The notes under the pieces are model-generated. The model saw nothing but the letters and a program-made list of their open reading frames with translations. It ran no database searches and had not been told where the DNA came from. From Cetorhinus maximus (lineage: Eukaryota), in NCBI RefSeq assembly GCF_964194155.1, contig NC_135890.1:109058001-109122000 (forward strand): a DNA stretch of 64,000 nucleotides. Direction: 5' to 3'. A program made the translations under genes and the position numbers. This document shows positions 10,845 to 51,487 of this stretch, piece after piece (positions within the stretch are counted from its first letter, which is position 1; each line of letters opens with the position of its first letter).

Positions 10845-12576
10845 AAACCATTCCTGAATGATGGGGGAGCCCAGCACAACAGTTCAAAAGACAAGGCTGA
10901 AGCATTTGCAACCATCTTCGGCTAGAAGTTCTGGGTGGATGATCCATCGTGGCCTCCTCCTGAGGGCCCCAGGATCATAGATGCCAATCTTCAGCCAATT
11001 CGATTCACTCCATGTGAATTTTTTTTATTCATTCATGGGATGTGAGCATCACTGGCAACAACAGCATTTATTGCCCACCCCTAATTGCCCTTGAGAAGAA
11101 TGCTGCAAAGGCCATGGTCCCTGATAACATGCTGGCAATAGTTTTGAAGACTTGTGCTCTAGAAGTAGCCACACCCATAGCCAAACTATTCCATTACAGC
11201 TACAACATTGACATCTATTTAGCAAGTGGAAAAATGCCCAGGCATGTCCTGTCCACAAAAAGGAAGACAAATCCAACCCATAGATCAGTCTACTCCCGAT
11301 TATCAGCAAACTGATGGAAGGTGCCATTGACACAGTGCTATCAAGCGACACTTACACGGCAATAACCTGCTCACTGACCCTAAGTTTGGTTCCACCAGGG
11401 CCACTCAGCTCCTGACCTTATTGCTGCCTTAGTCCATGGACAAAAGAGCTGAACTCATGAGGTGAGGTGATAGTGATTGCCCTTAACATAAGGCAGCATT
11501 TGACCAAGTGTGGCATCAAGGAGCACTAGCAAAACTGGAGTCAATGGGAATCAGGGGGGACGGGGACTCCTGGTTGGAGTCATAGCCTTGCACAAAGGAA
11601 GATGGTTGTAGTTGTTGAAGGTCAACCATCTCAGACCCAGGATATCAGTGCAGGAGTTCCTCAGGTCCGTGTCCTAGGGCCAACTATCCTCAGCTGCTTC
11701 ATCAATGACCTTCCCTCCATCGTAAGGTCAGGAGTTCAGCACCACTCGTGACTCCTCAGATACTGAAGTTCTCTGTGTCCATATGCAGCAAGACCTGGAC
11801 AACATTCAGGCTTGATAAGTGGCATGTAATATTTGCATCACACAAGTGCCAGGCAATGACCATCCTCAACAATAGAGAATCCAACCATGTTCTCTTGACG
11901 TTCAGTGGCATTACCATTGCTGAAACACCCATTTTCAACATCCTGGGGGGGTTACCATTGACCAGAAACGGAAATGGACCAGCTATATAAATACTGTGGC
12001 TACAAGAGCCAGGGAATTCTGTGGAGAGTAACTCACCTCTTGATACCCCAGAGCCTAGTTTACAAGGCACAAGTCAGGAATGTAATGGAATACTCTGCAC
12101 TTGCCTGGATGAGTGCAGCTTCAACCATACTCAAGAAGCTTGATACCATCCAGGCCAAAGCAGCCTGCTTGATTGGCACTCCAGCCACCACCTTCAACAT
12201 CCACTCCCTCCATTACCAATGCACAGTGACAGAAGTGTGGACCATCCATAAGATGCACTGCAGCAACTCACCAAGGCTCCTTAGACAGCACCTTCCAAAC
12301 CCAGGACCTCTACCATCTAGAAGGACAAGGGCAGCAGATGCATGGGCACACCGCCACCTGCACATTCCCCTCCAAGCCACACACCATCCTGACTTGGAAT
12401 TGTAACTATAACAAAATCTTGGAACTCCATAACAACACTGTGGGTGTACCTAAACCACATGGACTGCAGCAGTTCAAGATGGTGGCTCACCATCATCTTC
12501 TCAAGGGCAATTAGGGATGGGCAATAAATGCTGGCCAAGGCAGTGATGACCACATCCCATGAATGAATAAAAAAAA
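10845..12576 (+). mobile_element. CR1/L2-group LINE (second family), decayed RT plus 3' end
   Basis: KDKAEAFA, AAFDQVWH, GVPQ..VLGP and YKAQVRNVMEYS motifs; 3' end CCCATGAATGAATAAAAAAA shared with many copies in the window. Confidence 0.85.
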
Positions 12577-12586: not shown

Positions 12587-13895
12587 CAGGTACATTGTCT
12601 CAAATCTGGCTGTCCAAAAACCAAGCATTTTTATAATGTGCCATGAATCAATTTTAATTGAGTAAACTAAAATTAAAACTTAGATAAAAGCAAAAAACTG
12701 CAGATGCTGGAAATCCAAAACAAAAACAAAAATACCTGGAAAAACTCAGGTCTGACAGCATCTGCGGAGAGTAATACAGTTAACATTTCGAGTCTGTATG
12801 ACTCTTCAACAGAACTAAGGAAAAATAGAAAAGTGGTGAAATATAAGCTGGTTTAAGGGGGGGATGGGACAGGTAGAGCTGGATAGAGGGCCAGTGATAG
12901 GTGGAGATAACCAAAAGATGTTATAGACAAAAGAACAAAAAGTTGTTGAAGATGGTGATGATATTATCTAAGGAATGTGATAATAAAGATACAGATAGCC
13001 CTAGTGGGGGTGGGGTGGGGGGAAGGGATCGAAATAGCCTAAAAGGCAGAGATATAACAATGGATGGAAATACATTTAAAAATAATGGAAATAGGTGAGA
13101 AAAGAAAAATCTATATAAATTATTGGAAAAAAGGGGGATAGGAAAGGGGGTGGGGATGAAGGAGAGAGTTCATGAGTTTCTTTTCCCACCTATTTCCATT
13201 ATTTTTAAATGTATTTACATCCATTGTTTTATCTCTGCCTTTTAGCCTATTTCGATCCCTTCCCCCCACCCCACCAGGGCTATCTGTACCTTTATTATCA
13301 CATTCCTTAGATAATATCACCACCTTCAACACCTCTTTGTCCTTTTGTCTATGACATCTTTTGGTTATCTCCACCTATCACTGGCCCTCTATCCAGCTCT
13401 AAAACAAAAACAGAATTACCTGGAAAAACTCAGCAGGTCTGGCAGCATCGGTGGAGAAGAAGAGTCGACATTTCGGGTCCACACGACCCTTCAACAGAAC
13501 CAGCTATCCAGCTCTACCTGTCCCACCACCCCCCCCTTAAACCAGCTTATATTTCACCTCTTTTCTATTTTTCCTTAGTTCTGTTGAAGAGTCATACGGA
13601 CTCGAAACGTTAACTGTGTTCCTCTCCGCAGATGCTGTCAGACCTGCTGAGTTTTTTCAGGTATTTTTGTTTTTGTTTTAAAAATAAAACTTACCTGGAC
13701 AATTCGGCTAGGTGCTGCATTGATAAGGTGTGGTGCTGGAGTAGCCTCACTCTGCGCTCTGAGTGATCCTTGACCCCACCCGACCCAGTTTGACCTGAAC
13801 AGCCCACGGCCCAAATCACCCAACCTGAAATCTGGCAAGATCCGAAATCCAGCACGGTCTCGATCCTGAGGTTGCCAGTTTTGAGACTATACCTG
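12587..13895. mobile_element. Tigger/pogo-like non-autonomous DNA transposon hosting the Penelope fold-back insertion
   Basis: TIRs CAGGTACATTGTCTCAAATCTGGC (12587) and CAGGTATAGTCTCAAAACTGGC (reverse complement ending at 13895); TA on the left. Confidence 0.6.
12683..13679. mobile_element. Large fold-back Penelope 3'-region insertion containing a second nested pLTR fragment (13402-13503)
   Basis: 12683-13171 and 13172-13679 are inverted copies of the 3' region of the 54371-58219 element; TSD AAAA(T/A)TAAAACTTA-like 14-mer at 12669-12682 and 13680-13693 (1 mismatch). Confidence 0.9.
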
Positions 13896-15654: not shown

Positions 15655-15800
15655 AAAAGCAAAATACTGTGGATGCTGGAAATCCAAAATAAGAACAGAA
15701 AATAACTGGAAAAACTCAGCAGGTCTGACAGCATCTGTGGAGAGAGGAGAGTCATACTGTCAGACCTGCTGAGTTTTTCCAGCATTTTCTGTTTTTATTA
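15655..15800. mobile_element. Short fold-back Penelope pLTR derivative about 40 bp downstream of a TMEM248-like exon donor
   Basis: CTGGAAAAACTCAGCAGGTCTGACAG ... CTGTCAGACCTGCTGAGTTTTTCCAG inverted arms. Confidence 0.85.
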
Positions 15801-16344: not shown

Positions 16345-16990
16345 TTTTAAAAATTCATTCGAGGGATGTGGGTTTTGCTGGCTGGGTCAGCATTTATTGC
16401 CCATCCCTAATTGCCCTTGAGAAGGTGGTGGTGAGCTGCCTTCTTGAACTACTGCAGTCCATGTGGGTAGGTACACTCACAGTGCTGTTAGAGAGGGAGT
16501 TCCACGATTTTGACCCAGCAACAGTGAAGGAACGGCGAAATATTTCCAAGTCAGGATGATGGGTGACTTGGAGAGGAACTTCCAGGTGGTGGTGTTCCCA
16601 GCTATCTGCTGTCCTTGTCCTTCTAGATGGTAGTGGTCATGGGTTTGGAAGGTGCTGTCAAAGGAGCCTTGGTGAATTCCTGCAATGTATCTTGTAGATG
16701 GTGCACACTGCTGCTACTGTGCATCAGTGGTGGAGGGCGTGAATGTTTGTGGATGTGGAACCAATCAAGTGGCCTATTTGTCCTGGATGGTGTCAAGCTT
16801 CTTGAGTGTTGTGGGAGCTGCACTCATCCAGACAAGTGAGGAGTATTCCATCACACTCCAGACTTGTGCCTTACAGATGGTGGACAGGCTTTGGGGAGTC
16901 AGGAGGTGGGTTACCCGTCACACAATTCCTAGTCTCTGACCTTCTCTTGTAGCCACAGTATTTATATGGCTAGTCCAGTTCAGTTTCTGA
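16345..16990 (-). mobile_element. CR1/L2-group LINE 3' fragment (same family as 10845-12576)
   Basis: Reverse complement of the 3' part of that family; further pieces at 17255-17790, 18810-19135, 58780-59070 and 59450-59590 (-) and 48065-48150 (+). Confidence 0.85.
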
Positions 16991-18441: not shown

Positions 18442-19437
18442 CTGAAAGAGAAAGAAGATAGCACTTTGCAAACGGTCTAAAATAATGCTGGTAACTTTGT
18501 AGAAGCCTGCTGGGAAGCTCCTGAAAAATCTTCCAATTAAAAAACTGTTCCAAGATTGTTTAAACTTGTAAGTAAACGGGAATTATTGGACACAATATAC
18601 AGGTCAGTGATTTTGATTACCACAATATTGCATTATCTAGACTTTTGTTTTATTTTACAATGGACTAGACAGAAGGGTCACAGTCTACCCTACTGACTCA
18701 AATTCAGGAAGCCCAATGTAAACTGGTCAAATTTATAGATAATACTAAAATTAAACAAGGGGAGGAAGAGAGGGTATACATCAGAGGAAATAGTCAAAGC
18801 TTACAACTTTAAAAAAAAAATTCATTTACCGGATGTGGGCGTCATTGGCTAAGCCAATATTTTATTGCCCATCCATAATTGCCCTTGAGAAGATGGTGGT
18901 GAGCTGCCTTCTTGAACTGCCATAGTCTGTGGCGTACATACACTCACAATACTGTTAGGGAGGGAGTTCCGGGAGTTTGACCCAGCGACAGTGAAGGAAC
19001 AGCAATACATTTCCAAGTTAGGATGGCAAGTGGCTTGGAGGGGAACTTCCAGGTGATGGTGTCCCCACGTATCTCTGCTGCCTTGTCCTTCTGGATGGTA
19101 GCAGTCGTGGGTTTGGAAGGTGCTGCCTAAGGAGTCTATGTGGTGTCTTTAACGTAGAAAAACTTCCAAAAACCCCCTCTGAGGTATAATCTTCTCAAAG
19201 CATGGAGCTATTAGGAAAAGTTATCAAAAGCTATACTAAAGGAGTAGGTCACCTTATAAAAAGAGAAAAAGTGCATCTAACATAGCTTTAACTGACAGTT
19301 AGACTTGATGGCCAGCGTTTTCTGTATCTGTGCATTAAAAGAATGCAGAAGCACAAAATTATAGATGACATTTACAGGTTTAAACTTATCTTTAGTTATT
19401 AGTTCAGAAGGGGCTGCTACTGTACATTTGTGCTTAC

Positions 19438-19744
19438 CTTCCAGCCCCAGCAGGTTTCCAACTACCACAGCTTGGAGATGAGTTATGTCACCAGAAAATC
19501 TTTTTAACGGCTCCTTTAAATCAAAGGTCATTGGCACGAGCAGACTGACTGGTACGCCTTTTGTATAAGCAACAGTGGTTGAGGGTTGCCTTGTTGTCGT
19601 ATGAGCTAAAGGTTCTGGATCTGGTCGTCTCCTTATGGAACCATGTCCACTAGGTAGAGGTTCTGTGTTAGTCTGCCACAGGCTTTCATTTTCAGACAGA
19701 CAGAACTCCAGTTTACTGAGAGATTGCAGGACTGCATTCCAGGC
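19438..19744 (-). CDS. TMEM248/TMEM219-family protein, coding exon 2
   Basis: atttag|AWNAVLQSLSKLEFCLSENESL...VSLLVPMTFDLKEPLKRFSGDITHLQAVVVGNLLGLE|gtaagc; 307 nt open, phase 0/1; matches TMEM248 DWNTFLLRFNDLDLCVSENETL. Confidence 0.9.
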
Positions 19745-21210: not shown

Positions 21211-21580
21211 TGAGATCAATTGCAGTTGCATTACTGCTATCGCAGTTGAGATTAAGTAATTCAGCATAGATTTGGGATCTTCTTCAGGGGAACATTAAGA
21301 AAATAAAACTTTAGCAACATCTGTTATTAACATACAGCACTTAGACAATAATAAACATGAGTTAAGTTAATTATGATGTACAGGTCCCCAAATATCAACA
21401 GGCAGGTGCACAAATGCAAGGGGAAAACCAATTTTACCCTCATATTTACATATGCATGAACAACATGGAGGAAGGAAAAATTAGACCACAGGGTTCTGGT
21501 TTGCTAGTAATGTGCAGCATCAAACAATCACTTTTGTGAAATTATCAGACTTGTTTTCTTGTTGCACTTTGTCAGCTTAC

Positions 21581-21739
21581 CTGAGGCACATCAGGGTTTG
21601 TGACTTCATGTGAATGGATGTAGATCCCGAGACTGAAGAAAGCGATGCCCAAAGAGCTGATGCTCAAAATAAATAAAACCATTGGTGGCCGGTGGACAAC
21701 AAAATACTTCACATTCTCCAATAGGTGCCATGTTACCAT
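21581..21739 (-). CDS. TMEM248/TMEM219-family protein, coding exon 1 (first TM helix); exon acceptor at 21757
   Basis: MVTWHLLENVKYFVVHRPPMVLFILSISSLGIAFFSLGIYIHSHEVTNPDVPQ|gtaagc; aligns with TMEM248 LENLKVYISSRPPLVVF and TMEM219 SPDIPQ. Confidence 0.92.
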
Positions 21740-23299
21740 GATGACAGCTGGTTACAACTAGATTAAAAAAAACAATTTACATACATGTAACAAGATGAGT
21801 AATGCTAGCGATATCTGTACGTACAACTCATAACTAAATTTGTATCGAATGGGAAGATTATTTTCTCCCTCATTTGCTAAATTGTGTTCAAGTTCCCAGC
21901 ACTATTCCCCACCCAAGCAGATGATCTGTTCCCAAAGATTGGGAGCTGGCAGAATATGAAATTCACCAACTGATTCTTCCTTCTTGTGGTGGAATGTCTA
22001 GCCTGGGCGCAAGGTTCTCTTCTCGCACAGCCAAGACTGGAAATTTGCTGGACATCAGAAAGGGCAACTGTGGACCAGCTTCCCACCTCTCTCGATAAAA
22101 TTTGTTCAAACCCAATGACCAGACTAATAATCCACCTGTGAAATACAATTCGACTCTCTCTTCTGTCACCCCGCCCCCATTCCATGCCCCAAACTTCCTG
22201 ACTCATGATATGCTGTTCATGTGGCCATTCGCCATTTGTCGGCAAGTTATTTGACCATGTTAGGGGGAAATCACAGATGTTTTTGCTATTTCAGTAAGAT
22301 GTCCATGCACCTGTACTGAACAGCAAGGATCAGTAGACATCAATCAAATGCGGGCTCCTTGTTTGATTTTTCTCCAACAACATTTAAGGTTAAGTGTAAA
22401 ATACTTCAAAAGAGATAAGGAAATAATGAGTCCTCTGGGGTATTTTGATATATTTTATTAAAAATAAAAAGAGTACATTAAAGGAATAGCATTTAAGCAA
22501 ACCCCAATTTTTGAAGAGGTCAAGACTCCTACAGTTCAAAAAATTAGCTGGCACACGTGGCAGCCAACACAACAGGGTAGGTTTCAGTCAGTTGTTCCAA
22601 GCAATAAGCTTGTACAAAAGCTCCCAAATCAGACAGCAACATACTTCTGAGCTTGAGCTTCAGTATTTGACTGAAGAGGCGCAATGTCGGTGATGTGACC
22701 GCCAGAATCAGAGCAGGCAGTTTGAGGTTTCACTCTGTCCATTAGTTCCTTCTTTTCCTTCCGTGCTGTTCTCAGTCACAACTACTCCCTCAGCTGTAGA
22801 ATGGTGGAAAAAAAAATAAGCCGACCACAAAACAGATTTCATCAGACCAACTTCCCTGCAGCCCATATAACCGTTATACCCACTGCACCTGAGTCAGTGC
22901 AGTTTGGTCTGTAGCACAGATAGCCTACCACTGACATGAAAACCATATCTGTGCCTTCCCCGCAAAAGCAGTAACGTTTTCATTGTAAAAATACAACGCT
23001 GAAAAGGGTCTGTAAAGCACAAATATCGGTTTTCTCTCGGATGCTTTGCATGCTGTTGAGACAACAAAGATATATTATCCCTTTTAACAGGGTTGACTTT
23101 GTCGGTAAAATCAGAGTCTGAACCTAAATTTTTGCATCATCTCGCATCTAATCCAAAACAGGATTTCTAATATCCAATTCCACCAGTGTAATTCTTGTCA
23201 AGAAATCAAAACTTCCAAATTTACCTTCCTTTAGCTCAATTTCCCTACAATCCAAGTATTTTTAAAATAAGTTATTTAATCTACGCTACTATTTAAAAA

Positions 23300-23910: not shown

Positions 23911-24519
23911 CAATCCAGTAATTACTGCTGAAAGTGTGCATATGTGCTACAAACACTCAATACCTAGAACAGCTTATAAGCGGTAACAGAGGTGAAATCT
24001 AGGATTCCTCGTTTTTCTTTTAAAATAGAATCCTCAACGTACCATCAAATCTCAATTGTAGGTTCAAAGTCAGTTCTCCATGTGGCATGCCTAATAGCAG
24101 ATGAGCATGAAAGACAGTCCTGGCTTGAATTTAACCAATTTCACTATTTATTTACAGTAGGTTCTCAAAACTCCATAAAAGCTCATAAGCAGGTTGGGTG
24201 TCACTGTCCTTCCCTCGCTCCCTAAGGTTTACCACGTGGAAAAATTTACTTTCAGATCTTGAGAGTACATCCTTACAGTTCCTGCTTCCTGAGGAAGATC
24301 TATCAGCTGGGCAAGATGATTGACCAAAGGCAGGGCCCAATCAGAACCAAGGTACAAATCCAAATCATAGAATAACTTAGCATCAATAAAAATTAAAATT
24401 AACCTCAGGCTCTAGGAAAACTAATGCACATTATCCTGGAAGAAATTGAAAATTCCTGATTGTAAATAATACCATATTTCTTCCATCCAGCTCTGAGCTC
24501 CATAAGTACCAAATTACAG

Positions 24520-25762
24520 AGTTGATGAAAGGTATGAAAGGCCAGGGCCACTCAGCTCCTGATCTTATTACAGCCTTGGTTCAAACATGGACAAAAGAGC
24601 TGAACTCCCAAGGTGAGGCAAGAGTGACTGCCCATGACATCAAGGCAGTATTTGACCGAGTGTGGCATCAAGGAGCCCTAGCAAAACTGGAGTCAATGGG
24701 AATCAGGGGGAAAACTCTCCACTGGTTGGAGTCATGTTTAGCACAAAGGAAGATGGTTGTGGTTGTTGGTAGTCAGTCAATCATCTCAGTCCTGGGACAT
24801 CGCTGCAGGAGTTCCTAGGCCCAACCATCTTCAGCTGCTTCCTCAATGACCTTCCCTCCATCATAAGATCAGAAGTGGGGATGTTCCAGATGATTGCATT
24901 ATGTTCAGCACCATTCACGGACTGTTTCAGTATCTGAGGAGTCATGTCCAAATGCAGCAAGGCCTAGACAATATCCCGGCTTGGGCTGATTGGTGGCAAG
25001 TAACATTTACGCCACACAAGTGCCAGGCAATCACCATCTCCAACAAGAGAAAATCTCACCATCACCCGTTGACATTCAATGGCATTACAATCGCTGAAAC
25101 CCCACTATCAACATCCTGGGGGCTTACCATTGACCAGAAACTGGACTGGACCAGCCATATAAATTCTGTGGCTACCAGAGCAGATCAAAGGCTGGGAATT
25201 CTGTGGAATTCTCATCTCCTGACTCCCCAAAGCCTGTCCACCATCTACAAGGCACAAGTCAGGAGTGTGATGGAAGATTCTGCACTTGCCTGGATGGGTG
25301 AAGCGCCAACAACATTCAAGAAGCTTGACACCATCCAGAACAAAGCAAAACACTTGATTGGCACCCCACCCACCACCTCCACCACTGATGCACAGTGCTA
25401 GCAGTATGTACCATCTATAAGATGCACTGTAGCAACTCATCAAGGTCCTTCAACAGCACCTTCCAAACCCATGAACCCTTTCACCGAGAAGGACAAGGGC
25501 ACTGGATGCATGGGAACACCACCAGCTGCAAGTTCCCCTCCAAGTCACACACCACCCTGACATGGAACTACATCACTGTTCCTTCACTATGACTGGATCA
25601 AAATCCTGGAACTGCCTTCCTAAAAGTAGCGTGGGTGTTTCTACAACATGGACTGCAGTGGTTCAAGAAGGCAGCACACCAACTTCTCAAGGGCAATGAG
25701 GGATGTGCAATAAATGCTGGCTGAGCCAATACCACCTACACCCCATGAATGAATTAAAAAAA
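24520..25762 (+). mobile_element. CR1/L2-group LINE, RT to 3' end
   Basis: DIKAVFDRVWHQG and YKAQVRSVME motifs; same 3' terminus as 10845-12576. Confidence 0.88.
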
Positions 25763-26079
25763 ACATGGTTTGAGATGGTTAACTCTCCAATTTTTCTTTC
25801 CTCTACAAGGAGAAACAGATGATCTCTGCAAAGCCTATAGTAGCATGGCTAAGATCAGTAAGTCATTGAGTAGAAAATAAGTTATACCTGGCATTTCCTC
25901 CCATCTCACTAACAGTGTGTCGAAATTCAAATACACAACTACATTTCTGTTTTATTATATAATTGCAGCAAAAGGCATCCTTTAGTTTAAAATCAAAACA
26001 CTCCGGATGCTGGAAATCTGAAACAAAAATAAAAATAGCTGGAAAAACTCAGGTCTGACAGCATCTGCGGAGGGGAAAA

Positions 26080-26120
26080 CAGTTAACGTTTCGAGTCCGT
26101 ATGACTCTTCATCAGAACTG
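26080..26120 (-). ncRNA. Minimal type I hammerhead ribozyme motif (mirror copy)
   Basis: Exact reverse complement of 26207-26247; lies on the transcribed strand of the host genes. Confidence 0.8.
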
Positions 26121-26206
26121 AGGAAATATAGAAATGAGGTGAAATATAAGCTGGTTGTCCCACCCCCCTCAACCAGCTTATGTTTCACCTCATTTCTATA
26201 TTTCCT

Positions 26207-26247
26207 CAGTTCTGATGAAGAGTCATACGGACTCGAAACGTTAACTG
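26207..26247 (+). ncRNA. Minimal type I hammerhead ribozyme motif
   Basis: CAGTT-CTGATGA-A-GAGTC-ATACG-GACTC-GAAA-CG-TT-AACTG: helix I CAGUU/AACUG, intact CUGAUGA and GAAA boxes, 5-bp helix II, palindromic ACGU in place of helix III, GUU cleavage triplet. Confidence 0.8.
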
Positions 26248-26767
26248 TTTTCCCCTCCGCAGATGCTGTCAGACCTGCTGATATTTTCCAGCTATTTTTA
26301 TTTTTGTTTCAGGCATCCTTTAGTGTTCGCCATATTCCTTGTTCACAGTCAACTGGGTGTCTCAGTGACTTGGCCCTTGAGGTCTACAGTGAAACTAGCT
26401 AGAAGACATCAGTGTTTTCCCAGTGGAAAAATGCCTGGACATCACTTACTCTTATCAACATGTACTTACACATCAGTTTAACCATTGTAAATACGCCCAG
26501 GGTGTTTCAAAAAGTAGCAGTCAGGCTTAACAAGGAGTAGTAAGGGTTGGCTGAGATGGCTGAAGACCTGGTCAGAAATCAGACTCATCATATCCACAAT
26601 ATTTTGGTTATTGGTGTGGTAATATACTGCCAATGTGGTTCTACAATCTTACTCCACCTTATTTCTAATTCTTTATGGATGACATTTATACAGCTCCACC
26701 CAATCCCATTTAAGGCTGCATCTCTGCAAGGTTTTACAGTATCACATGCAGTGAACGACTAAAGATG

Positions 26768-26890
26768 CTCTGAAGAAGGGTCATAAGGACTCAAAACGTT
26801 AACTCTCTTTCTCTCTCCACGATGCTGAGTTTTTCCAGCATTTTCTGTTTTTGTTTCAGATTTCCAGCATTCACAGTATTTTGCTTTCAG
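26768..26890 (+). mobile_element. Penelope pLTR fragment (CTGAAGA hammerhead variant)
   Basis: CTGAAGA-A-GGGTC-ATAAG-GACTC-AAAACGTTAACT; flanked by the duplication CTAAAGATG (26759-26767, 26891-26899). Confidence 0.8.
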
Positions 26891-28149
26891 CTAAAGATGA
26901 ATACTTGTTACAATCATTCCAGCACCATCCATTACAAAAATATTCACATTCTTGGAAAAGAAGTTAGTTCATTTTAATTTAAGTAATATGCATGTGTGGT
27001 TCTCTCTCTCTCTCACACACACTCACAATCCAATAATCAAAGGTTATACATGCAATGAAATAAAAGACAAGCCTGTAGTCTCCCTCAGCGACTTTAAATG
27101 CCAATAGAAGCCCAGGGTGTTGTGACCTATGTTACACAATGCACTAAGTGAAAGTTTACAAGTTTGATGATCTACCCAAGAGTTTGAAGATACCTGCTGT
27201 AGTCTGTTGAGATAATTACATCATCATTTGGCAGTGAAGTGATATTGAAGGACATGCGTTCAACTCCCTTTGCCAACTAATTCACAACCTCAACACTGCT
27301 GAGAGAAGCCAGATGCTTTCTGATAAGGGAAAAGAGAAAAGCCCAAGGACAGTTGTTTCTAGGCCACTGCTGCTGCTTCCCACTCCAGTCCGTCTGTTAA
27401 TACTACTTACAGGCCAGGGAAAGGTGTGGGGGGAGCAAGTCCTATTGGCCAGAAATATGCACAGAGAAAACACAAAACTTATACAAAACAATATTGTGTA
27501 ATACTAGTAATGAATTAACCTGATATCAAGGTTTGGTCTGCTGATCAAAACACTTGCATGTTTGTCACCAGTTTTATCCTAAGCCATGTGGCACTGCCTC
27601 TTCAAACATCGAGAAATCTTCACAAAAGCGATGTCCACAACCAAATGTCACTGCAAAAGCAAGAAAATACATTTTGAAGAAAAATCTTAACGATAAAATG
27701 TATTAGTGAATTTAACATAAGGTACTACTCCAATTTCAGTGTGCTCAGGGCCTGAAGCACACAAGCTATGCCCAATGCTTTATGACATTGCTCCAATCTT
27801 CAGTTAGATTTTCATCTTTTAGTAATTTTTTATTAATCTGCTTAATCAATTAACTTGCAGTAATGACATCACTGTTGGTAACCCCACAAAGCAAAAAATG
27901 TATTGTTGCAACCATTGCAAATTTTATTGCCGCCACAACACTTGTTTTTAAACTCAATTTTAAAAAAAATTATCTTTAAAAGAAAAATCAAAATTAACAT
28001 TTGTTGAAATAAAAGCAGAAAATGTTGGAACTTTTCTCTTTCAGACTAGGAGAGGTGTGTTTCTTACAATATCTCTTATATCATCATTCAGTTTTCCTTT
28101 TTGATTTTCAACAGTCTGAATGGAGGGAAATATGATGCCATTGTTTTTA

Positions 28150-28680
28150 TATTAGGTTTAGGGAAGCTATGTTAAACTTGTATAGAACACTGATTCAGCC
28201 TCAACTGAGTATTGTGTTCAGTTCTGGGCAGCGCCATGCTTTAGGAAAAATGGGAAGGCATCAGAGAGAGTGCAAAACAGATTCACAAGAATGGTTCCAG
28301 GGATGAGGAACTTCATAAGTAGTTAGATTGGAGAAGTTGGGACAATTTTCCTTGGATAAGAGAAGGTTGAGAGGAGGTTTGATAGAAGTATTTAAAATCA
28401 TGAAGGGTCTGGACAGAGTGGTTGGGAAAAAAGCGTTCCCATTGGTGCAGGGATTGAAAACAAAAGGGCACAGATTTAAGATAATTGGTAAAAGAAGCAA
28501 TGGTAAATGAGGAATAACATTTTCATGCAGCAAACGGTTAGGATCAGTAACGCGCTGCCCAGGTATGTGGTAGAGGCAGGTTCAATTGAGGCATTCAAGA
28601 GGAAATTGGATTGTTAGCGGAAAAGGAAGAATGTGCAAGACCATGGGGATAAGGCGGGGGAGTCGCACTAGTAGGGTTGC
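28150..28680 (+). mobile_element. CR1 LINE 3' fragment
   Basis: LEKLGQFSLDKRRLRGGLIEVFKIMKGLDRV...KGHRFK, the CR1 ORF2 C-terminus. Confidence 0.85.
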
Positions 28681-30039
28681 CAACTCTGGTTGTATATATT
28701 CCAGGAGACATTGGTAGAAGTAAAGTCACAGAAAGCCAGTGGCGTGAACAAGTTCTAAGGCAGCACAAGGGAGGAAAACAAGCCAACTTTAGGCAAACAA
28801 GATGAATTTGCAGCAAGGGTAAATAATGATTAAAGTTTAGAAGAAATAAAGCTTTACTCACACTTAAGGGGCTTGATGCATGGTTTCAAACAGAGATATT
28901 ATAAGCTGCTAAAACGGAGGAGAAAATAATTTTTTTCTCACTCTCTATCCCTGTTTTTAATGAAATGAAATGATCCGAAACTCTATATAAAAGCTGTTAT
29001 AAATCATAAGATCTAGTTACAATGGACCTTCAACAATTTTTTTGGCCAACTCATTGCTTATTGAAGAACTATGAAATAACAAATGTGGTTTCTGTTATGA
29101 AGGATATATCATTAATACTTTGTGAAGTCTTGAGCTTCATACACTTCAATAAATTTGCAGGGACAAGACACTCTATACAAAGAGTCAGAGCAGGACTCTA
29201 GGTGAGCAACTCTGACATACCTTCTCACAGACATCTTAAGACAGACACTAATAAAGGCTTAAGTGCATCTTGTTCCATCCCCTCCCCAGCCTCTGAGATA
29301 CAACATGCAGTTCTGCTTCAAATTCTATTTTCTTGTTATAAAATTGCTAAGGTACAAATAATTTCCCATTGATTTCACTAAGTCACATTACAGCAATTAT
29401 ACCAACACCTCTTACAGTTTGCTCAGACCCAAGTTCATGCAAATCTCCTAATTTCAGGCAACACCTCCTTTAGTAAAAAAAGACTAGAGGGGGTGAGACA
29501 AACAAGAGGACCGAAGCTGTTAGGTACAGTATAAAAAGAAACTACACTAGCAAGATCTATGTGGGTCACTTATTGGCAGTCCCCGATCTGGACCATGAGT
29601 ATGGTTTTTAGTTACTAACCTGACCTGTGTCTTTAAGGCCATCGCTCTAAATAGGAAAATGGATTAACAATTGCTTCCATTTCAATTACTGTTTTGCATC
29701 TGTAACCAAATGTGACGTTTTGGAATGTGATGTGAAACGCAGTTTATGATGGTTGTAAACTAGATGCCAAATATATATTGAATTTGTTTCAGTGTACAGT
29801 ATGAAATGCCCATGTTAAGGAGGAGATAACTGATCCAGTGGGAGAACAGTCTGTCCACCAGTCCAATCTTGAAACCTACCCTAGAGAATGGGGTTTGTTC
29901 AAAAGCCTGGACTGATCAAGAGTGCAAAATCAGCCCCAGGTATTTTTTAACAAATCTATCTTTGACCACAAATGTAAATATTGGCAACATGAGACCACGC
30001 TTCTAAAGATAGAATTTCTAACAACAGCCTCTGAAAGTA

Positions 30040-30243
30040 CGGGTACCAGACCCTTATTCGGTGTCCCAAAATCCGGAAGGGCCTGAAAACTGGCTACATT
30101 TGAAGCTGGTACCCTGGAATAAAATCCTTTTATTCTTCATTTTTCATAGATTTTCTGTACATGCTAGGCCTAGGACCCAAAATCCATTAAATCCCAAAAT
30201 CCAGTCTCAACCTGAGCTTTCCAGATATGGGGTTTGGCATCTG
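30040..30243. mobile_element. Tigger-like MITE
   Basis: Degenerate TIRs CGGGTACCAGACCC / CAGATGCCAAACCC with TA on both sides. Confidence 0.55.
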
Positions 30244-31534
30244 TAAACAGAATTCTACAATTCCTGTTCCAGTGGTGGACAGATTATACTACACATATTT
30301 AATCTGTAACATAGCTTAGAATTACCAATGTATAGCACAGGAACTAATCATATTGAGAGCTCGATTCTTAAAATGACACATTATCAAAAGAAATCAGAGG
30401 GAAATCATTTAAATTTTTATTTACATATCCATGCATAAAGTGCAAATATTAACCAGCACAGGTTCTTTCATTAAAAAAAACAGAATGTCCAAAAATAGAC
30501 TTTAAACAGTCTCATAAATCTCACCAAAGAACAGTCTTAAAAATGTAACACATAAAACAATACATAACTAAGATCTCACAAATGAACATGTACACAAAAG
30601 AAGAAAACACCCACTTGTCAAACGCAATCGCTGGGTCACACATGCAAGCTTTCAGGATCAGCATCCAACTGGAATACACCAGCTGTGCTCTTAACCACCG
30701 CCCCCCCAGTGCAGGTGGGATTGTTGGGAATGATGCAGAGTTTCCACACAGTCCCACTGGAACTAAATATATTTAAATACAATAATAAAATGTATTAAAT
30801 TCTTAATTATAGTTACAAGCATGATTGATTGATCCATTTACCTGAAAAACACTACTTACTAATTATCCTTAGCTGCTTGCACATAGTTAATAGGCATTAG
30901 TGTCTAGAAGGGAAATTGAAATATCAAGAGATAATTTCTGGTCTGTTCTGAGTTAGCTGTTCTAAGGGGTACAAAGTCAGCTAGATACCTCGCTTTGGAT
31001 CCCTACATTGACACCAGTCGAGGGGGGGTTGGTCTTCAGTGATGTTTCCCATTACTTAATAACTTGCTGAAATGTTTAGTCTCACATATGAAAACTGGGA
31101 CCTAGAATGTCTTATCAAACCTTATCCAGCATGAGCTGGCACCTTCAGAAAAAAGGAACGGAGAAAATTGTACAGAAATTGAAGAAATATAAAACATAGT
31201 TTTCATAATAAAACATCCACAGATTTACAGAAATATTCTGCAGACTGAGAACTATGAAGTGCATTAAGTAACAGGTAAACAAATTATTTCATTTAATTTT
31301 GTACTTAGATATTTTCTGTTTAAAAATGTACACAAATATTCAACATCTTCAAAAAAAAAGTTTGCTTGCAGTATCAAGCAGCCCCAAGTCAGGCAGGCAC
31401 AGCATGAATTAGAACAAAATAAAGCTTTGTCAACTCTATCCAACAGTGTATTTTGAAATGAGTCACAGGAAAACATCACCTATTGCATCATTATGACTTT
31501 CACCATAATAGTTAATTTAATGCCAAATCATGAC

Positions 31535-31870
31535 AGCAACAACTTGTATTTATATAGCACCTCTAACTTAGTAAAATGTCCCAAAGTGCTTCTCAGGAGT
31601 TATCAGAAATGTTTGACACCATGTCATATAGGGGATATTAGGGCTGATGAGAGGTAGTTTTTAAAGGAGCATCTAAAGGAAGAAAGAGAGGTAGGGAGAC
31701 AGAGGTTTAGGGTGGAAGTGCCAGAGCATAGGACCTAGGCAGCTGAAAACATGATTGCTATTGCTAGAGCAATTAAAATCAGGGATGATCAAGAGGTAAA
31801 TTGAAGGCTTGTAGGGCTGGAAGAGATTACAAAAATAGTGTGAGATTTGAAAACAAGGATGAGAATTTTA
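31535..31870 (-). mobile_element. L2 LINE 3' end; related copies at 45850-46050 and 59640-60240 (-)
   Basis: ACAACTTGTATTTATATAGCACC...CCCAAAGTGCTT terminus shared between the copies. Confidence 0.7.
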
Positions 31871-34800
31871 AATAAGGCAAAACATAACATAGGGGCACAA
31901 AATATTACTGAACTCTAAAGTATAGCTGTGCTTAAGGTTGATAACCTACTTGCCATAAAGACCCTAGGAACTTCAAATTCAAATTATACCAGATGCTTCA
32001 GTCAAGTGAGAAACATTTTCCAATCCATATCTATTTCAAGATTTGATCCCTGAAAGGGAAAATACTAATCTTCTGTCCTTTCCAGTTCCCATATAGTTTT
32101 TTTTAAGTAAGGGTTTACCTGTGGCATAGTTTGGAGCGCAGTTTAAATTGTTAGATGCTAACCAGGCTACTTCACAGTCACTCCATGTGGGAACAAGTGA
32201 TGTTAATTGGCTCCAAGGTCAATTAAAGGTTAATTATTGTGGAGGTTTCTGCAGATTGGTAACTACTTGCTACCCCTCATTTTGATTTTAACAACTTCAT
32301 TGGGATCTCGAGGCCATAATAAAAGAGGAAACACTAAGGTTACTTACTCTTTAAGCCATTTTAAGATTGCATCATCATCATTGGTCCTTCAATTTTGAAG
32401 ACAGCCAGAATATAATTTTTTGCAGCAAGTCCTTTGCTGACTTAAGAGATCTGTTTTTGCTTGGAATAGGCATCCATAGATTGAATAGTGGATTCTGGAT
32501 ATACCGGATTGGGAATCTTGATTTTTCAAGTGAGACTTCTTCAACTGGCCTTCACATTCAGCATCAGCAATATGACAAACTTCATTGCAGCAAGTGCCTT
32601 CATGAATGATTTATTTTGTGCTGTGCTTTCTTTTCTTAAGCATGTTGTTCCACTTATGAGTGTCTATTTTGCACTATCACAGAGATTTTGATTAGTTTTT
32701 ATATCTCTTTTGCTGAACACCACAAACGTCACTTCCCAGTTCTCAATACACCATGAAAAATAATTTTCGGGCTTTGCTTATCAGGCAGTCACATAATCAG
32801 CTCAGACGTTGCAAATGTCTGATGAATGAAAGATTGTATTAAACACATCACAACTGTGACAGACGACAAGGCAGATAGAAAAAGTTGTATCAATTGATGA
32901 TCTTAAGCAAAGGTAACAGAGGCAAATGACTGGAATAATTTTATCCGTTACGTTTCCTTCTCTAATTCTCCTCTGACTTTCTCAATTTAGCCACAGCTAC
33001 TCTTAAAATCCCAGGGCAATGCTTCTAAAGCGCCCATTCTTCATGTGAAAACCTGGACAGTGAGCACTGATGAACAATTCCACTGCAAGCAACCACAACC
33101 AGGCCAGCCTACCTAATGTGCACATGGGTGCACTTTACAGCAAGATCATAGGCTCGTGATCTAGCGCAGAGAATCCTGGATTGGGGTTTTGGAAATCATT
33201 TTTGGCTGATTAACTTATTCCTGATCAAACTCACACCATATAACAGCTAATCTATGGAATTTGTCTTAATTGTTATCATATATAGTATGTTTTACATGCA
33301 CTTTATTCTCTTAATTTAGTACAGAGCAGAATAATCTGATCACAATAAACCAGGTGTAGACTTATACTGGTTTGCTTCTATTGTGATACATTTAGTGAGA
33401 TACACCCTACTAACACAACTGTTCTGCTCCTGTTTCTAGTTAACAAAGTGTCCAAATGAAATCAAATTTTGTGCCAAACTACTTGGAGCTTCAGGTGACA
33501 TGAAATATTTATTCCATTAATTCCCAATTTACAATAGAAATTAGATACACAAAATTCAAGTCAAGGGTAGGAAATTAACAGGAAAACCTGTATGATTTGA
33601 AGCGAGTATCACCAGGGCAACTCTTTCAATAAAATCACTCACTAACAGCCACATCATGCCCAATGTTGCAACCAGATCCCCTCCTGTCCAAATTCAAACA
33701 TGACTAGAGATTTTGGCTCAACCAGAAATGGGATGGAAAATGCACACCTAGGACCTCGGTGTCAGGAATGAGGAGGAAGCTACAGGCAACACTGGCAGAA
33801 CTACGTAACTTGGAGATCCAGTTGGGAGGTCTGAGGTTAGCAACCAAGTGAATCCAATTGGAAAACCTCAATCCAAGGTAAACTGAATCATGCACAGAAG
33901 CATGACAGAACAGCTTGATAAATGGGCATGGATATAGCTCGAAAGGAAGCAGTAATAGTCATTTGATACAAATAAAATATATCCAGCTGTAATTTCCATC
34001 CTAATTCCAACATTACATTTCATGCCTTTTTTGACATTGATCAACTCAAATTTCATATTCAAAAAGATCATGGGCAATTTTCCTTTCAACTATGTTAAAG
34101 GTGAACATATTAAACCTTTATTAAGTTGATATTATGCTCTTTTATTTCTTAAAACTCAAAGCTCATTCATGTTTTCCAAACTTTATTGAACTGAGTCACA
34201 AAACTCCTTCTCAAAGCTACAATGATAGAACATACTAGCAGGCAAAACTTAACAGAACAATGGGCTCCCTTTAAAGAGAAGATGGTGCAGGTACATTTTC
34301 ACAAGGGGCAAAGGTAGGACAAACAAAGCCAGAGCTCCATGGATGACAAAAGAGATAGAGGGTAACATGGAGCAGAAAAAGTGTGTATAATAGATGTCAG
34401 CTTGATAATACACGTGAGAACCAGGATGAATATAGAAGCTCAGTGGGAAAGTGAAAAAAGTAATGAGAAGCAAAGCAAGAACATGAAAAGAGACTGGCAG
34501 CTAACATACAAGGGAATCCAAAAGTCTTCTTCAGGCATATAAATAGTAAAAGGGTAGTAAAAAGAGGGACTGGGCCACTTGTGGACCAAAAAAGAAATTC
34601 AAGTATAGAGGCTTGGCTGAGGTACTAATTTACTACTTTGCATTTGCCTTACCAAGAAAGAAGATGCCCAAGTCATAGAGAAAAGGAGGTATTTGAGATA
34701 CTAGATGGGCTAAAAATTGTTAGAGTAGGCATTAGAAAGGCTGACTGTACTTAAAATTTACAAGCCACCAGGACCAGATCAGATACATCCTAGGATATTG

Positions 34801-34965
34801 ATGGTTGAAATTGCGAAAGCATTGGCCATAATCTTCTAATCCTCCTTAGATACAGGGGTGGTGCCAAGAGACTAGCGAAAAGCAAATGTCACACCCTTGT
34901 CCAAAAAAGGGTACAAAGATAAGCCCAGCAACTACAGGCCAGTCAGTTTAACCTGGGTGATGGGA

Positions 34966-37900
34966 TAGAAACATAGAAAATAGGAGCAGGAGTAGGCCAT
35001 TCGGCCCTTCGAGCCTGCTCCGCCATTCATTATGATCATGGCTGATCATCCAACTCAATAGCCTGCTCCTGCTTTCTCCCCATATCCTTTGATCCCTTTT
35101 GCCCCAAGAGCTATATCTAACTCCTTCTTGAAAACATACAATGTTTTGGCCTCAACTACTTTCTGTGGTAGCGAATTCCACAGGCTCACCACTCTCTGGG
35201 TGAAGAAATTTCTCCTCATCTCAGTCCTAAATGGTCTACCCCATATCCTCAGACTGTGACCCCTAGTTCTGGACTCCCCCACCATCGGGGACATCCTTCC
35301 TGCATCTACCCTGTCTAGTCCTGTTAGAATTTTATAGGTTTCCATGAGATCCCCCCTCATTCTTCTGAACTCCAGCGAATATAATCCTAACTGACTCAAT
35401 CTCTCCTTATATGTCAGTCTTGCCATCGCAGGAATCAGTCAGGTAATCCTTCGCTGCACTCCCTCTATAGCAAGAACATCCTTCCTCAGATAAGGAGATC
35501 AAAACTGCACACAATATTCCAAGTGTGGTCTCACCAAGGCCCTGTATAATTGCAGCAAGACTCCCTGCTCCTGTACTCGAATCCTCTTGCTATGAAGGCC
35601 AACATACCATTTGCCTTCTTTACCACCTGCATGCTTACCTTCAACGACTGGTGTACGAGGTCACCCAGGTCTCGTTGCACATTCCCCTCTCTCAATTTAT
35701 AGCCATTCAGATAATAATCTGCCTTCCTGTTTTTACTACCAAAGTGGATAACCTCACATTTATCTGCATTATACTGCATCTGCCATGCATTTGCCCACTC
35801 ACTCAACTTGTCCAAATCACACTGAAGCATCTCTGCATTCTCCTCACAGCTCACCCTCCCACCCAGCTTTGTGTCATCTGCAAATTTAGAAATATTACAT
35901 TAAGTTCCCTCATCTAAGTCATTAATATATATTGTGAATAGCTGGGGTCCCAGCACCGATCCCTGTGGTACTCCACTAGTCACTGCCTGCCATTCGGAAA
36001 AAGACCCGTTTATTCCTACTCTTTGTTTCCTGTCTGCCAATTAGTTTTCTATCCATACACTACGCCAAATCCCATGCGCTTTAATTTTACTCGTCAATCT
36101 CTTATGTGGGACTTTGTTGAAAGCCTTCTGAAAGTCCAAATAAACCACATCCACTGGCTCCCCCTCATCAACTCTACTAGTTACATCCTTGAAAAATTCC
36201 AGTAGATTTGTCAAGCATGATTTCCCTTTTGTAAATCCATGCTGACTCTGTCCGGTTCTGCCAGTGTTTTCCAAGTGCTCAGCTATTAAATCTTTTATAA
36301 TGGACTCTAGAATTTTCCCCACGACCGATGTCAGGCTGACTGGTCTATAATTCCCTGTTTTCTCTCTATCTCCCTTTTTAAATAGTGGGGTCACATTAGC
36401 TACCCTCCAATCTGTAGGAACTGTTCCAGAGTCTAAAGAATCTCAGAAGATGACCACCAATGCATCCACTATTTCTAGGGCCACTTCCTTAAGTACTCTG
36501 GCATGTAGATTATCAGGCCCTGGGGATTTATCGGCTTTCAATTCCATCAATTTCTCCAACACCATTTCCCTGCTAATATTGATTTCTTTCAGTTCCTCCC
36601 TCTCACTAAACCCTGTGTTCCCCAACATTTCTGGTATGTTATTTGTGTCCTTCTTTGTGAAGACAGAACCAAAGTATGTATTTAGCTGGTCGACCATTTC
36701 TTTGTTCCCCATTATAAATTTCCCTGTTTCAGATTGTAAGGGACCTACATTTGTCTTCACCAATCTTTTTCTCTTTACATACCAATAGAAACTTTTACAG
36801 TCAGTTTTTATGTTCCCTGCAAGCTTACTCTCACACTCTATTTTCCCCTTCTTAATCAATCCCTTGGTCCTCTTTTGCTGAATTCTAAACTGCTCCCAAT
36901 CCTCAGGCCTGTTGTCTTCTCTGGCCAATTTGTATGTCTCTTCCTTGGATCTAATACTGTCTCTAATTTCCTTTGTAAGCCATGGTTTGGCCACCTTTCC
37001 TGTTTTACTTTTGCACCGGACAGAAATAAACAATTGTTGCAGTTCACCCATGCGCTCTTTGAACATTTGCCATTGCCTATCCACCGTCATCCCTTTAAAT
37101 AACGTTTCCTGATCCATCATAGCCAAACTCACGTCTCATACCATCGTAGTTTCTTTTATTAAGATTCAGGACCCTAGTCTCAGAATCAACTATGTCACTC
37201 TCCATCTTGATGAACAATTCTATCATATTATGGTCGCTCATCCCCCCAAGGGGCCTCACACAACAGATTGCCAATTATTCCTTTCTCATTACACAATACC
37301 CAGTCTAGGATGGTCTGTTCTCTAGTTGGTTCCTCAACGTATTGGTCCAGAAAACCATACCGTATACACTCCAGGAATTCCTGCTCTACGGTGTCGTTAC
37401 TAATTTGATTTGCCCAATCTATATGCAGATTAAAGTCACCCATAATTACAGATGTTCCTTTATTGCATGCGTCTCTAATTTCCTGTTTGCCATTCCCAAC
37501 ATCACCACTACAGTTTGGGGGTCTATATACAAACCCCAATAACGTTTTTTGCCCCTTAGTGTTTCTCAGCTCTACCCATACAGATTCCACATCGTCAGAG
37601 CTAATATCTTTCCTCACTATTGTGTTAATTTCCTTTTTAACCAGTAATGCAACTCCATCGCCTTTTCCTTTTTGTCTGTCATTCCTAAATACTGAATACC
37701 CCTGGATGTTCAGTTCCCATCCCTGGTCATCCTGCAGCCATGTCTCTGTCATCCCGACTATATCATACCTATTTACATCTTTTTGCACGATTAATTCATC
37801 CACTTTATTGCAAATGTTCCTCGCGTTAAGGCACAAAGCCTTAAGGCTTTTCTTTTTAACATTACTTGTCCCGTTCCCACTATTTTTCACTGAGGCCCTG

Positions 37901-39350
37901 TTTGATTCTTGCCCTTGATTTCTCTGCCTATCACTTTTATAATTCTCCTGTCTTTTGTTCTTGTCTTTGATTCCCCCAGCTCTGACCCCTTGCATAGGTT
38001 CCCATCCCCCTGCCATTTTAGTTTAAACCCTCCCCAACTACTCTAGCAAATATTCCCCCGGGACATTAGTCCCGGTCCTGACCAGGTGTAACCTGTCCAG
38101 TTTGTACTGGTCCCAATGTCCCAGGAATCTGAATCCGTCCCCTCATACCATCTCTTCAGCCACGTATGCATCCGATATATCCTGCTATTTCTACTCTGAC
38201 TAGCACGTGGCACTGGTAGTAATCCTGAGGTCACTACCTTTGAGGTTCTACTTTTCACCTTACTTCCTAACTCCCTATATTCTGCTTTTAGGACCTCATC
38301 CCTTTTTTTACCTATGTCGTTTGTACCAATGAATACCACGACCACTGGCTGTTCACCCTCACCCTTCAGAATGTCCTGTAGCCGCTCTGAGACATCCTTG
38401 ACCCTAGTGCTAGGGAGGCAATATACCATCCTGGAGTCTCGTTTGCAGCCACAGAAATGCCTATCTATTCTCCTTACAATTGAATCCCTTATAAGTATTG
38501 CATTCCCACACTTTTTACTCCTCCCTTGTGCAGCAGAGCCAACTGTGGTGCAATGAATTTGGCTGTTGCTGCTTTCCCCTGAGAGGCCAATCCCCTCCAA
38601 CAGTATCCAAAGCGGTATATCTGTTTTGCAGGGGAATAGTCACAGGAGATTCCTGCACTGCCTGCCAAGTCCTCTTGCTCTGCCTGGTGGTCACCCATTC
38701 CCTTCCTGCCTGTGGACTCTTCACCTGCAGTGTGACCACCTCTCTATATGTGTTATCCACGATACTCTCCACCTCGCAGATGCTCCACAGTGTCCCCAGC
38801 TGCTGCTCCAGCTCCGAAACCCAGGCTTCCAGGAGCTGCAGCTGGAGCCACTTCCCGCCCACACGCTGGCCTCGGGTTCTGGAAATGCTCCCGGCTTCCC
38901 ATATAGAGCAGGAGGAGCACACCACGCCTTTGAGCTCCCCTACCATGACTTACCCCTTTAAATTAAATTAAACCTTTTGGAAGATACCTAATATCAAATA
39001 ATATCAATTACTCTAGGGCCCTTGTTCCCTGCTCCTCGTTGTTACAGAATATAGCCCTTACAAACGATGAACCACAAAATAAGACCTTAAAAATTATAAG
39101 CGATAAAAGTATTAAATACTTACCCGACCATATTCATGGTACTCAAAGGATCACCTCGTTCCCTCCTCACCTCCTCCCTCAGTCACCAAACTCCAACTGC
39201 AGCCCAGAGCAGCACACCAGTGCAGAAAAAGTCAGCACTGTAAGATGGCCTGTTTTTATACTCTTTGAATCTAGCCTCTGAAAACCTGTTTAAGCCAATT
39301 ATCTAATTAACTAGTTGTAGCTGCAAGCAGAGCCTGCATAAACCCTGTTA
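34966..39350 (-). mobile_element. Near full-length younger CR1 LINE: ORF1 (Zn-finger + SGNH esterase) and ORF2 (APE endonuclease + RT), frameshifted
   Basis: ORF1 pieces 38515-38946 (CSSCSIWE) and 38043-38600 (DSIVR, VVVFIGTND); APE 37228-38016 (NARNI.NK, GMTETW, YRPP, MGDFN); RT 36041-36394 (YLDFQKAFNKVPH); TTCTATGT-type tail at 34966-34980. Confidence 0.93.
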
Positions 39351-39660
39351 GCTTTCAGAAATGATAATACAGGACAAAAGTAACAAATTACTGGTACAAG
39401 TGTGGATTAATTAAAGGAAGTCAGCACAGATTTGTTAAAAACAAACCATGTTGAACTAATGGAGTTTTCAGATGAGGTAAGAGAGAGGGTTAATGAGGGT
39501 AATACGGTTGATGTCAGGTATACAGACTTCCAAATGGTGTTTGATAAAGTGCCGCATAACAAGCTTGTCAGCAAAGTTCAAAGCCCATGGAATTAAACAG
39601 AAAGTGGCAGCATGGAAACAAAATTGACGGAGTGAAAGGAAAGAGCAGTGGTGAATGGCT

Positions 39661-39883
39661 AGAACAAAAACTAAAATACCTGGAAAAACTCAGCAGCTTT
39701 GACAGCATCTGCGGAGAGGAACACAGTTAACACATCGAGTCCTTATGACTCTTCATCATTCATTCAGACGCGAAGCGTTAACTGTGTTCCTCTCCGCAGA
39801 TGCTGTCAGACCTGCTGAGTTTTTCCAGGTATTTTTGTTTTTGTTCTAGATTTCCAGCATCCGCAGTATTTTGTTTTTATCTT
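39661..39883. mobile_element. Fold-back Penelope pLTR insertion nested in CR1
   Basis: Inverted arms; 14-bp TSD AGTG(G/A)TGAATGGCT at 39647-39660 and 39884-39897. Confidence 0.9.
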
Positions 39884-42800: not shown

Positions 42801-43189
42801 AGGCGTTAACAGAGTTAAAATGTTAAACCTGTATGATGATTTGGGTACACATGCAGCTCCAGAAGTGGGTATGCAATAGATAAAGTCTGGGAACCTCTGA
42901 TCTTGGGAGTATCCCAAGAGATGGGACAAAAAGGAGAAGCCATTGCTAGAGATGCACTGACTGCAGTGGAAAGTTCAATGGCGTTGGTTGACAGTAGAGA
43001 GGGTTGGAGGAGAATGACGATGTCAACTTAAGCACCCACAATCAGAGCCAAAGTACAAGAAAGGGAGTTTGGAAAGAACACTGTGGGATTTTAGCTTCGG
43101 GATCAGGACGGAAGACTTGAGTTGCCCCAGTGTGTGGGGTTAGAGAGATCGCTTTGGGAGGTTAAGTCACCTAAGGCTAATTTTGCGCC

Positions 43190-45493: not shown

Positions 45494-45646
45494 TTAAAAG
45501 ATTAATTTATGTGGATAAACGCCCTTAGACAGACAGAACATGGAGCGGAGGTAGCCACGGAGCTGAGCAGTCTGTTTAACAATGGGCAGGAGTTGGGAAT
45601 CCACAGTCTTCTGGTCTTCCTTCCGCTGTTCTGTTAGCTGATATTT
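45494..45646 (-). CDS. RPL6: 60S ribosomal protein L6 (eL6), last coding exon
   Basis: ctcag|[50 protein letters not shown]. Confidence 0.96.
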
Positions 45647-51410: not shown

Positions 51411-51487
51411 CCATAGATGTAACAGTACAGTGAAAGAGATGAAGACAAAACACTGTCAATGATCAGTTAAGCCATAGACTCTCCTAC

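Follow-up and report, generated by a model that had tools for sequence, protein, structure and literature searches.

The window, meaning the whole 64-kb stretch of Cetorhinus maximus DNA analyzed here, contains on its minus strand two coding exons of a TMEM219-family gene (PF14940; 19280–21751, with exons at 21575–21751 and 19280–19744 and E values of 2.4e-12 and 3.8e-13), which we take to be possibly TMEM248. The identification came from Pfam (TMEM219), all scores of a protein atlas search with the 19280–19744 ORF being below 0.9. Minus is plausibly the strand of this host gene, and a CpG island at 43001–43500, with ETS- and CRE-like motifs and a GT donor at ~43376, would be its promoter on that strand. 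The gene adjoins that of ribosomal protein L6 (RPL6), whose exons (PF03868 and PF01159) were found at 45497–53113, also on the minus strand. A second CpG island (3001–3500), GC-rich and accompanied by (GT)n, is probably the promoter of the next gene. The repeats include an abundant SINE-like family (11019–11105, 16345–16607, 18813–19074, 25446–25762, and 58780–59059), presumably resembling shark HE1, and CR1/L2-like RT fragments (24450–25401 and 35055–38639).

Between the CpG island and the minus-strand TMEM219-family exons, and therefore probably within an intron (the putative 5′ intron), lies a single 324-bp inverted insertion (25987–26310) bounded by identical 14-bp target-site duplications (25973–25986 and 26311–26324). 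It consists of two pLTR arms that face outward, a minus-strand arm with a tail extension of ~30 nt (25987–26157) and a sense, plus-strand arm without the tail (26170–26310), which differ by three substitutions and one 3-nt indel. According to the inverted-repeat and folding analysis, the arms form an inverted repeat of 108 nt, 99% complementary, around a 12-nt C-rich junction that makes up the hairpin loop (26158–26169). Each arm carries a minimal hammerhead with a canonical A6 core, one on the host-gene strand (26081–26119, minus) and one on the plus strand (26208–26246). A sequence-only reading of this DNA had put the cleavage site after 26242, which would be the site of the plus-strand copy; the host-strand copy would be cut after 26085. 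A TATA-like box (26142–26148, minus strand) is located 29 nt upstream of an initiator-like A at 26119 and, judging from its sequence and its spacing across the family, would be a core promoter.

The hallmarks of an EN+ Penelope-like insertion, namely an inverted truncated pLTR, a one-sided tail, and a target duplication, are all present at 25987–26310. Inverted truncated pLTRs with a one-sided tail are a known layout of Penelope-like elements (PLEs; PMC8557442), and the layout at 26 kb would be compatible with a model in which both strands prime synthesis and RT begins at two internal positions (PMC11167929). It does not have the head-to-tail tandem units of a non-LTR retrozyme, with a ribozyme in each, its arms being inverted and their ribozymes on opposite strands. 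Where inverted arms meet, the junctions tend to fall within the hammerhead or immediately ahead of it, both in the window (2341–2354, 39731–39777, and 44872–44877) and at other genomic loci, and they often involve AGCT or AGTT/AACT microhomology.

RNA of the insertion was predicted to fold into a hairpin in both directions (−247 and −243 kcal/mol), with probabilities of 0.0 for helices I and II in either direction and a cost of 66.7 kcal/mol for forming both. The antisense arm is transcribed first whichever strand is read, and the co-transcriptional prefixes were already fully paired in the folding prediction. Read-through RNA of either strand is thus predicted to zip into a ~140-bp hairpin in which the hammerhead is buried and inert. 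Domesticated intronic hammerheads of the human RECK type fold as free monomers in the host pre-mRNA, unlike the motif at 26 kb, which is predicted to be buried in the hairpin and has no helix III. The two motifs of the insertion are unable to dimerize in cis, and an nhmmer search of the 64-kb window found no intact same-strand dimer partner in the host intron. Contigs from four presumed-RNA runs on 24000–43700 were mostly repeats and contained no usable exon joints. We regard the 26 kb copy itself as ordinary and an effect of its self-cleavage on the host gene as unlikely. Long near-perfect inverted-pLTR hairpins are present at 26018–26310, 13009–13275, 57848–58012, 39655–39850, and 15699–15800; within host pre-mRNA, such hairpins would yield double-stranded RNA, a possible source of A-to-I editing or small RNAs.

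The motif reads AGUU-CUGAUGA-A-GAGUC/AUACG/GACUC-GAAA-CGUU-AACU at 26208–26246 (+) and 26119–26081 (−). A strict scan of the window for CUGANGA, helix II, and GAAA returned these two cores (26212–26238 on the plus strand and 26115–26089 on the minus strand) and two other matches, at 54636 and 57935, which have a helix of only three pairs and were rejected as not being the hammerhead motif. With nhmmer, 23 homologous segments were identified in the window. The sequence-only reading had counted CUGANGA in more than ten copies, which was not borne out: only two of the 23 segments, the two arms of 25987–26310, carry the full canonical motif and eight read CUGUUGA, with U at position 6. These eight include the copies at 58095 and 13475, while the remaining segments are truncated or CpG-decayed (GAAA>AAAA, ACGU>AUGU). 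By nhmmer and motif alignment, the copies at 58083–58121 (+), with a G-U at helix II pair 2, and at 13577–13615 (+) are intact apart from U6, and the U6 copy at 13463–13501 (−) combines a GGGUC/GACCC helix II with a decayed C15.2. The helix II pairs and loops that had been quoted were all found at about the expected positions, GUU and GUC cleavage triplets both occur, and the palindromic ACGU was confirmed. Of the four examples given earlier for covariation, the helices are indeed present, but two (58095 and 13475) carry U6, and the one at ~4650 is degenerate, with extra bases after the core and no N17. The Rfam search that had been proposed gave no match to any hammerhead model at E ≤ 1. It did give 12 matches to other families (miRNA, plastid 3′UTR, and snoRNA), all under the gathering scores, and those with displayed alignments reflect long hairpins. 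The motif is not random, the exact genome patterns having 5,783 and 26,373 matches compared to 0 for the reversed controls.

A near full-length Penelope-like element of the same family as the 26 kb insertion, and taken to be its parent, lies at 54371–58220 on the minus strand, with an RT ORF at 55199–57646 and a GIY-YIG part in another frame at 54873–55406. It has an inverted pLTR at its 5′ side, a 13-bp target duplication, and U6 cores. Its position is just upstream of the first RPL6 coding exon found. The motif is on the sense strand, in the pLTR of an element encoding RT and GIY-YIG, in agreement with the earlier assignment to the minimal type I hammerheads of Penelope pLTRs. Elsewhere in the genome, 20 long loci were examined, and two of them, L213 and L214, are complete: each has an intact ORF of 917 aa and C6 in both pLTRs, and the two units are identical at 3264 of 3291 positions (99.2%). 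Long open frames together with C6 are also present at L198 and L200, and none of the three A6 loci examined kept a long ORF. Protein-coding constraint on position 6 was considered and rejected, because the first Met of the intact ORF is ~180 nt downstream of C3.

A CX2-5CxxC linker motif between RT and endonuclease (residue 782 of the L213 protein) points to a Neptune-like element, following the definition of the Neptune clade in PMC8557442. Like the EN+ PLE units of that clade (Craig et al. 2021, PMC8557442), the units described here have RT followed by GIY-YIG, a Zn motif in the linker, pLTRs in partial tandem as well as in inverted, truncated form, and a one-sided tail. In young subfamilies, a donor-like CCAG/GTAATT is found ~50 nt after the cleavage site (L213:3940–4140 and related loci), and its GT is absent from the old A6 families. 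Speculatively, if this site were spliced to the acceptor-like AG of the following pLTR, two hammerheads would end up near each other.

Helix II of the hammerhead shows compensatory changes. At pair 4, with the 5′ C fixed, the partner is G in 92 of the first 100 listed of 11,687 matches, and all 92 of these C-G copies carry C6. At pair 2, with the 3′ C fixed, the 5′ base is G in 94 of the first 100 listed of 1,658 matches, in contrast to the main A6/U6 patterns, where A is common at this position. Pair 1 (10.1–11.1) is G-C in 12 of 14 chosen representatives and A-U in two old copies. Across these 14 representatives, helix II was 100% paired, with double changes at two of its five pairs, and its covariation score was reached by two of 500 shuffles, a control that ignores relatedness. 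The helix II covariation first noticed from the sequence is therefore real, and the compensatory changes are a few evolutionary events copied many times. Helix I is weaker, 92.9% of its cells being paired in the same representatives, with no double change and a C-A mismatch in old families. When two motifs were folded as a dimer, the double-hammerhead had −11.7 kcal/mol versus −20.0 kcal/mol for the predicted optimum.

The family has the extra base after A9, the G10.1-C11.1 pair, and the palindromic 15.2–16.2 of minimal hammerheads, and the 26 kb copies and the A6 subfamilies also have the CUGANGA ... GAAA core, A15.1-U16.1, and H17. The U6 and C6 subfamilies lack A6 and are core variants. The extra base, the G10.1-C11.1 pair, and the palindromic 15.2–16.2, together with the type I topology, the putative 4-bp helix I, the absence of helix III, the location in pLTRs, and the thousands of lone or opposite-strand copies, are shared with the minimal hammerheads that the pLTRs of metazoan PLEs carry (Cervera and De la Pena 2014, PMC4209133). 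The family differs from these in its helix II of 5 bp and in its dominant subfamilies, which are U6 or C6 and thus outside that CUGANGA core. In its available text, the same report names U3-A8 as the only core covariation and does not mention cartilaginous fish.

One genome pattern gave position-6 counts of 5,783 for A, 26,373 for U, and 4,644 for C or G, and other patterns matched 11,749 A6A7 copies, 6,089 C6 copies (overlapping the set of 4,644), and 11,687 mostly C6 copies; counts from different patterns are not strictly comparable, and exact patterns favor young copies. Most members of the family are non-canonical at position 6, a point that the sequence-only reading had missed. The copies sampled were those matched first on the largest contigs. 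In a fixed-position sample (97 stretches, 970 kb, 96 matches), these subfamilies were found again, with the remaining bases of the core conserved, and so they were among copies anchored only downstream, without any requirement on the core. In this downstream-anchored sample, C6 was found in all 17 youngest-group arms that include position 6 (23 arms in total).

A tree built without columns 6–7 from 61 of 146 filtered copies grouped 22 of 23 U6 rows and 20 of 20 C6 rows in one supported clade, with all C6 rows in a supported subclade and the old A6 families and the 26 kb copy outside. Four A6 rows fall within the U6 clade, so the order A>U>C is not a clean sweep. The median nearest-neighbor divergence was 6.1% for A6U7 (n = 9), 3.7% for U6U7 (n = 30), 1.8% for C6C7 (n = 24), and 1.7% for C6U7 (n = 20), in a set of 84 of 186 aligned copies where some neighbors are arms of one insertion. 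As read from these alignments, A6 has drifted from A to U to C through successive subfamilies, and the youngest elements carry C6.

The A6C change slows hammerheads, strongly in Mg2+ (PMC3088659, PMC7151607); in one ribozyme its cost was >10,000-fold in Mg2+ compared to Mn2+, and A6C ribozymes cleave well in Mn2+ (PMC7151607). By analogy, the younger and most successful copies, which changed this catalytic letter and kept the fold, likely cut slowly. A pyrimidine at core position 6 is also found in the A6C hammerhead of phage Bcep176 (Perreault 2011, PMC3088659; Naghdi 2020, PMC7151607), but that is a single rare phage case with full helices, whereas here >10,000 C6 and >26,000 U6 copies are fixed in expanding subfamilies. 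In the literature searched, we found no report of A6U hammerheads or of PLE variants at position 6. Such variants may already be shown by Lunse et al., whose data reportedly hold about 150,000 PLE-linked variants.

A TATA-like box at −29/−30, counted from the A of helix I, was present in most main-lineage copies: 24 of 28 C6C7, 21 of 25 C6U7, 46 of 60 U6U7, and 17 of 30 A6U7 copies. The sequence around the A of helix I, TCAGTTC or TTAGTTC, is initiator-like. We infer that this A is where transcription starts, from the TATA-like/initiator promoter. Old copies have a sharp 5′ boundary at the first base of helix I: of the first 100 A6A7 matches listed, about 55 (hand tally) begin at −5 to 0 relative to C3, with a mode at −4 (about 26 of the 100 listed) and almost none at −6 to −15, while only 1 of 24 arms of the youngest group starts at this 5′ pile-up (−4).

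The ends of young copies may also bear on cleavage. In an unselected list, 99 of the 100 young copies listed run through the cleavage site and one starts there, and we estimate that about 1–2% of young copies would begin at this site, which makes it likely that copying uses uncut RNA. Among truncated young copies, no other single position serves as a start as often as the cleavage site (+1), with about 12 of 100 listed (hand count), so that some cleavage may occur even with C6; of 30 fetched loci, 20 are truncated, five starting at +1 versus four at −6. The distribution of 5′ ends was flatter in the A6/U6 group than in young copies, which means that canonical cores come without more cut ends.

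The explanation that we favor, and hold to be probable, is that the 26 kb feature is an inverted, 5′-truncated Penelope-like insertion whose pLTR hammerhead is predicted to be inert in host RNA, and that in the living element the hammerhead is likely a slow ribozyme at the start of the transcript. For the stub at 26 kb, both target strands would have served as primers, with reverse transcription beginning at two sites downstream of the ribozyme, and joining of the resulting two cDNAs would have produced the inverted insertion. The element transcript would open with the hammerhead, starting on the A of helix I. Reverse transcription would begin 3′ of the cleavage site, copies longer than about 100–140 nt would need uncut RNA, and a cut would deprive the message of its cap or of the RT start. 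A weaker core would cost the element little, or even help it, because long copies would need uncut RNA. The fold would be kept for slow cleavage, probably assisted by a dimer or a protein, or for a structural role.

Such attenuation agrees with the dispensable ribozyme activity in the anole element (PMC11167929) and with the thriving ribozyme-less PLEs (PMC8557442), which proliferate well. For Anolis carolinensis Poseidon PAc (Frangieh et al. 2024, PMC11167929), the main substrate is uncut RNA, RT begins at two internal positions, and extension takes place on both strands. The elements described here resemble PAc in their one-sided tail and, as far as sequence can suggest what was assayed for PAc, in two RT starts downstream of the ribozyme, extension of both target strands, and an uncut RNA template. 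They differ in their ORF, which starts ~150 nt after the cleavage site and not inside stem II, and in their protein, which has the CX2-5CxxC linker and is Neptune-like.

A stronger version of the favored explanation, which we offer tentatively and consider rather unlikely, is that a vertebrate Penelope lineage that starts its RNA exactly on the hammerhead has been selected, through one subfamily after another, to throttle the ribozyme, with A6 changing to U and then to C and helix II being rebuilt, leaving a conditional ribozyme. If true, this ribozyme would be switched on by an element protein, a second RNA, or Mn2+, and would choose between an intact template and a cut, decapped RNA.

A rival reading, also rather unlikely, is that in young copies the motif has lost catalysis altogether and is retained only as a hairpin near the promoter or as a structure bound by a protein or by RT. 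In its favor, successful lineages have changed position 6 twice, the box downstream of the ribozyme matches the core in conservation, and ribozyme mutants do not impair insertion in vitro (PMC11167929). However, the single-stranded C3, U4, G5, G8, A9, G12, A13, and A14 are fixed while loop 2 and the flanks vary, and the weak excess of copy starts at +1 also argues against a dead motif.

Somewhat more doubtful is the opposite proposal, in which position 6 is tolerant and the U6 and C6 cores still cleave usefully inside the ribonucleoprotein of the element, through protein chaperoning, dimerization, or Mn2+. It would explain why no subfamily has lost helix II, ACGU, or the rest of the core and why +1 is the modal start of truncated C6 copies, and it is in line with the anole ribozyme, which cleaves only with protein (PMC11167929), and with the activity of A6C ribozymes in Mn2+. 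The small share of young copies estimated to start at +1 and the cost of A6C in Mg2+ cited above speak against it.

About equally doubtful is the proposal that the AG conserved ahead of the core serves as a 3′ splice acceptor, the situation in Drosophila virilis Penelope, rather than, or in addition to, marking a transcription start. The AG is at −4/−3 in 144 of 146 copies, preceded by a pyrimidine-rich stretch and often by a CTAAC-like branch motif, but pyrimidine-rich flanks were selected by the filter itself. In D. virilis, the Penelope intron ends at the 5′ end of helix I (PMC4209133), and the promoter is internal and TATA-less (PMC2377424). Against a splice acceptor here stand the TATA-like box, the lack of an upstream exon in common, and the failure to find a conserved donor; the starts are mostly at −4, a mode that fits a transcription start better than a splice junction at −2.

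Finally, the sequence-only reading was right that the 26080–26120 copy has a canonical core on what is plausibly the host-gene strand (26119–26081), between the CpG island and the TMEM219-family exons, but its suggestion that this copy could cut host RNA as it is transcribed from the 43.4 kb promoter is very improbable and not supported, because the antisense arm is made first and the read-through RNA is predicted to form the hairpin, with a helix II probability near 0, the folding penalty given above, and no intact same-strand partner in the host intron; RNA from the arm's own initiator, which would escape the hairpin (helix II probability of 0.48), would not be host RNA, and in vitro, lone minimal motifs showed no cleavage (PMC4209133).

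Minimal type I hammerheads in the pLTRs of Penelope elements are of a known kind; what sets this family apart, as far as its sequences tell, is the drift of position 6 across the family and the coincidence of promoter and ribozyme. The family bears on the puzzle of why Penelope elements keep hammerheads, which cleave poorly, are not needed for insertion in vitro, and are missing from certain clades that have been very successful. The family is a natural dated series in one genome, with A6, U6, and C6 cores, GUU and GUC triplets, and three rewirings of helix II. Since the series includes intact, nearly identical young elements, the rate of cleavage can be compared against transposition success, and if the ribozyme has indeed been throttled, the purpose of PLE hammerheads could be tested on a dated natural series within this one genome.
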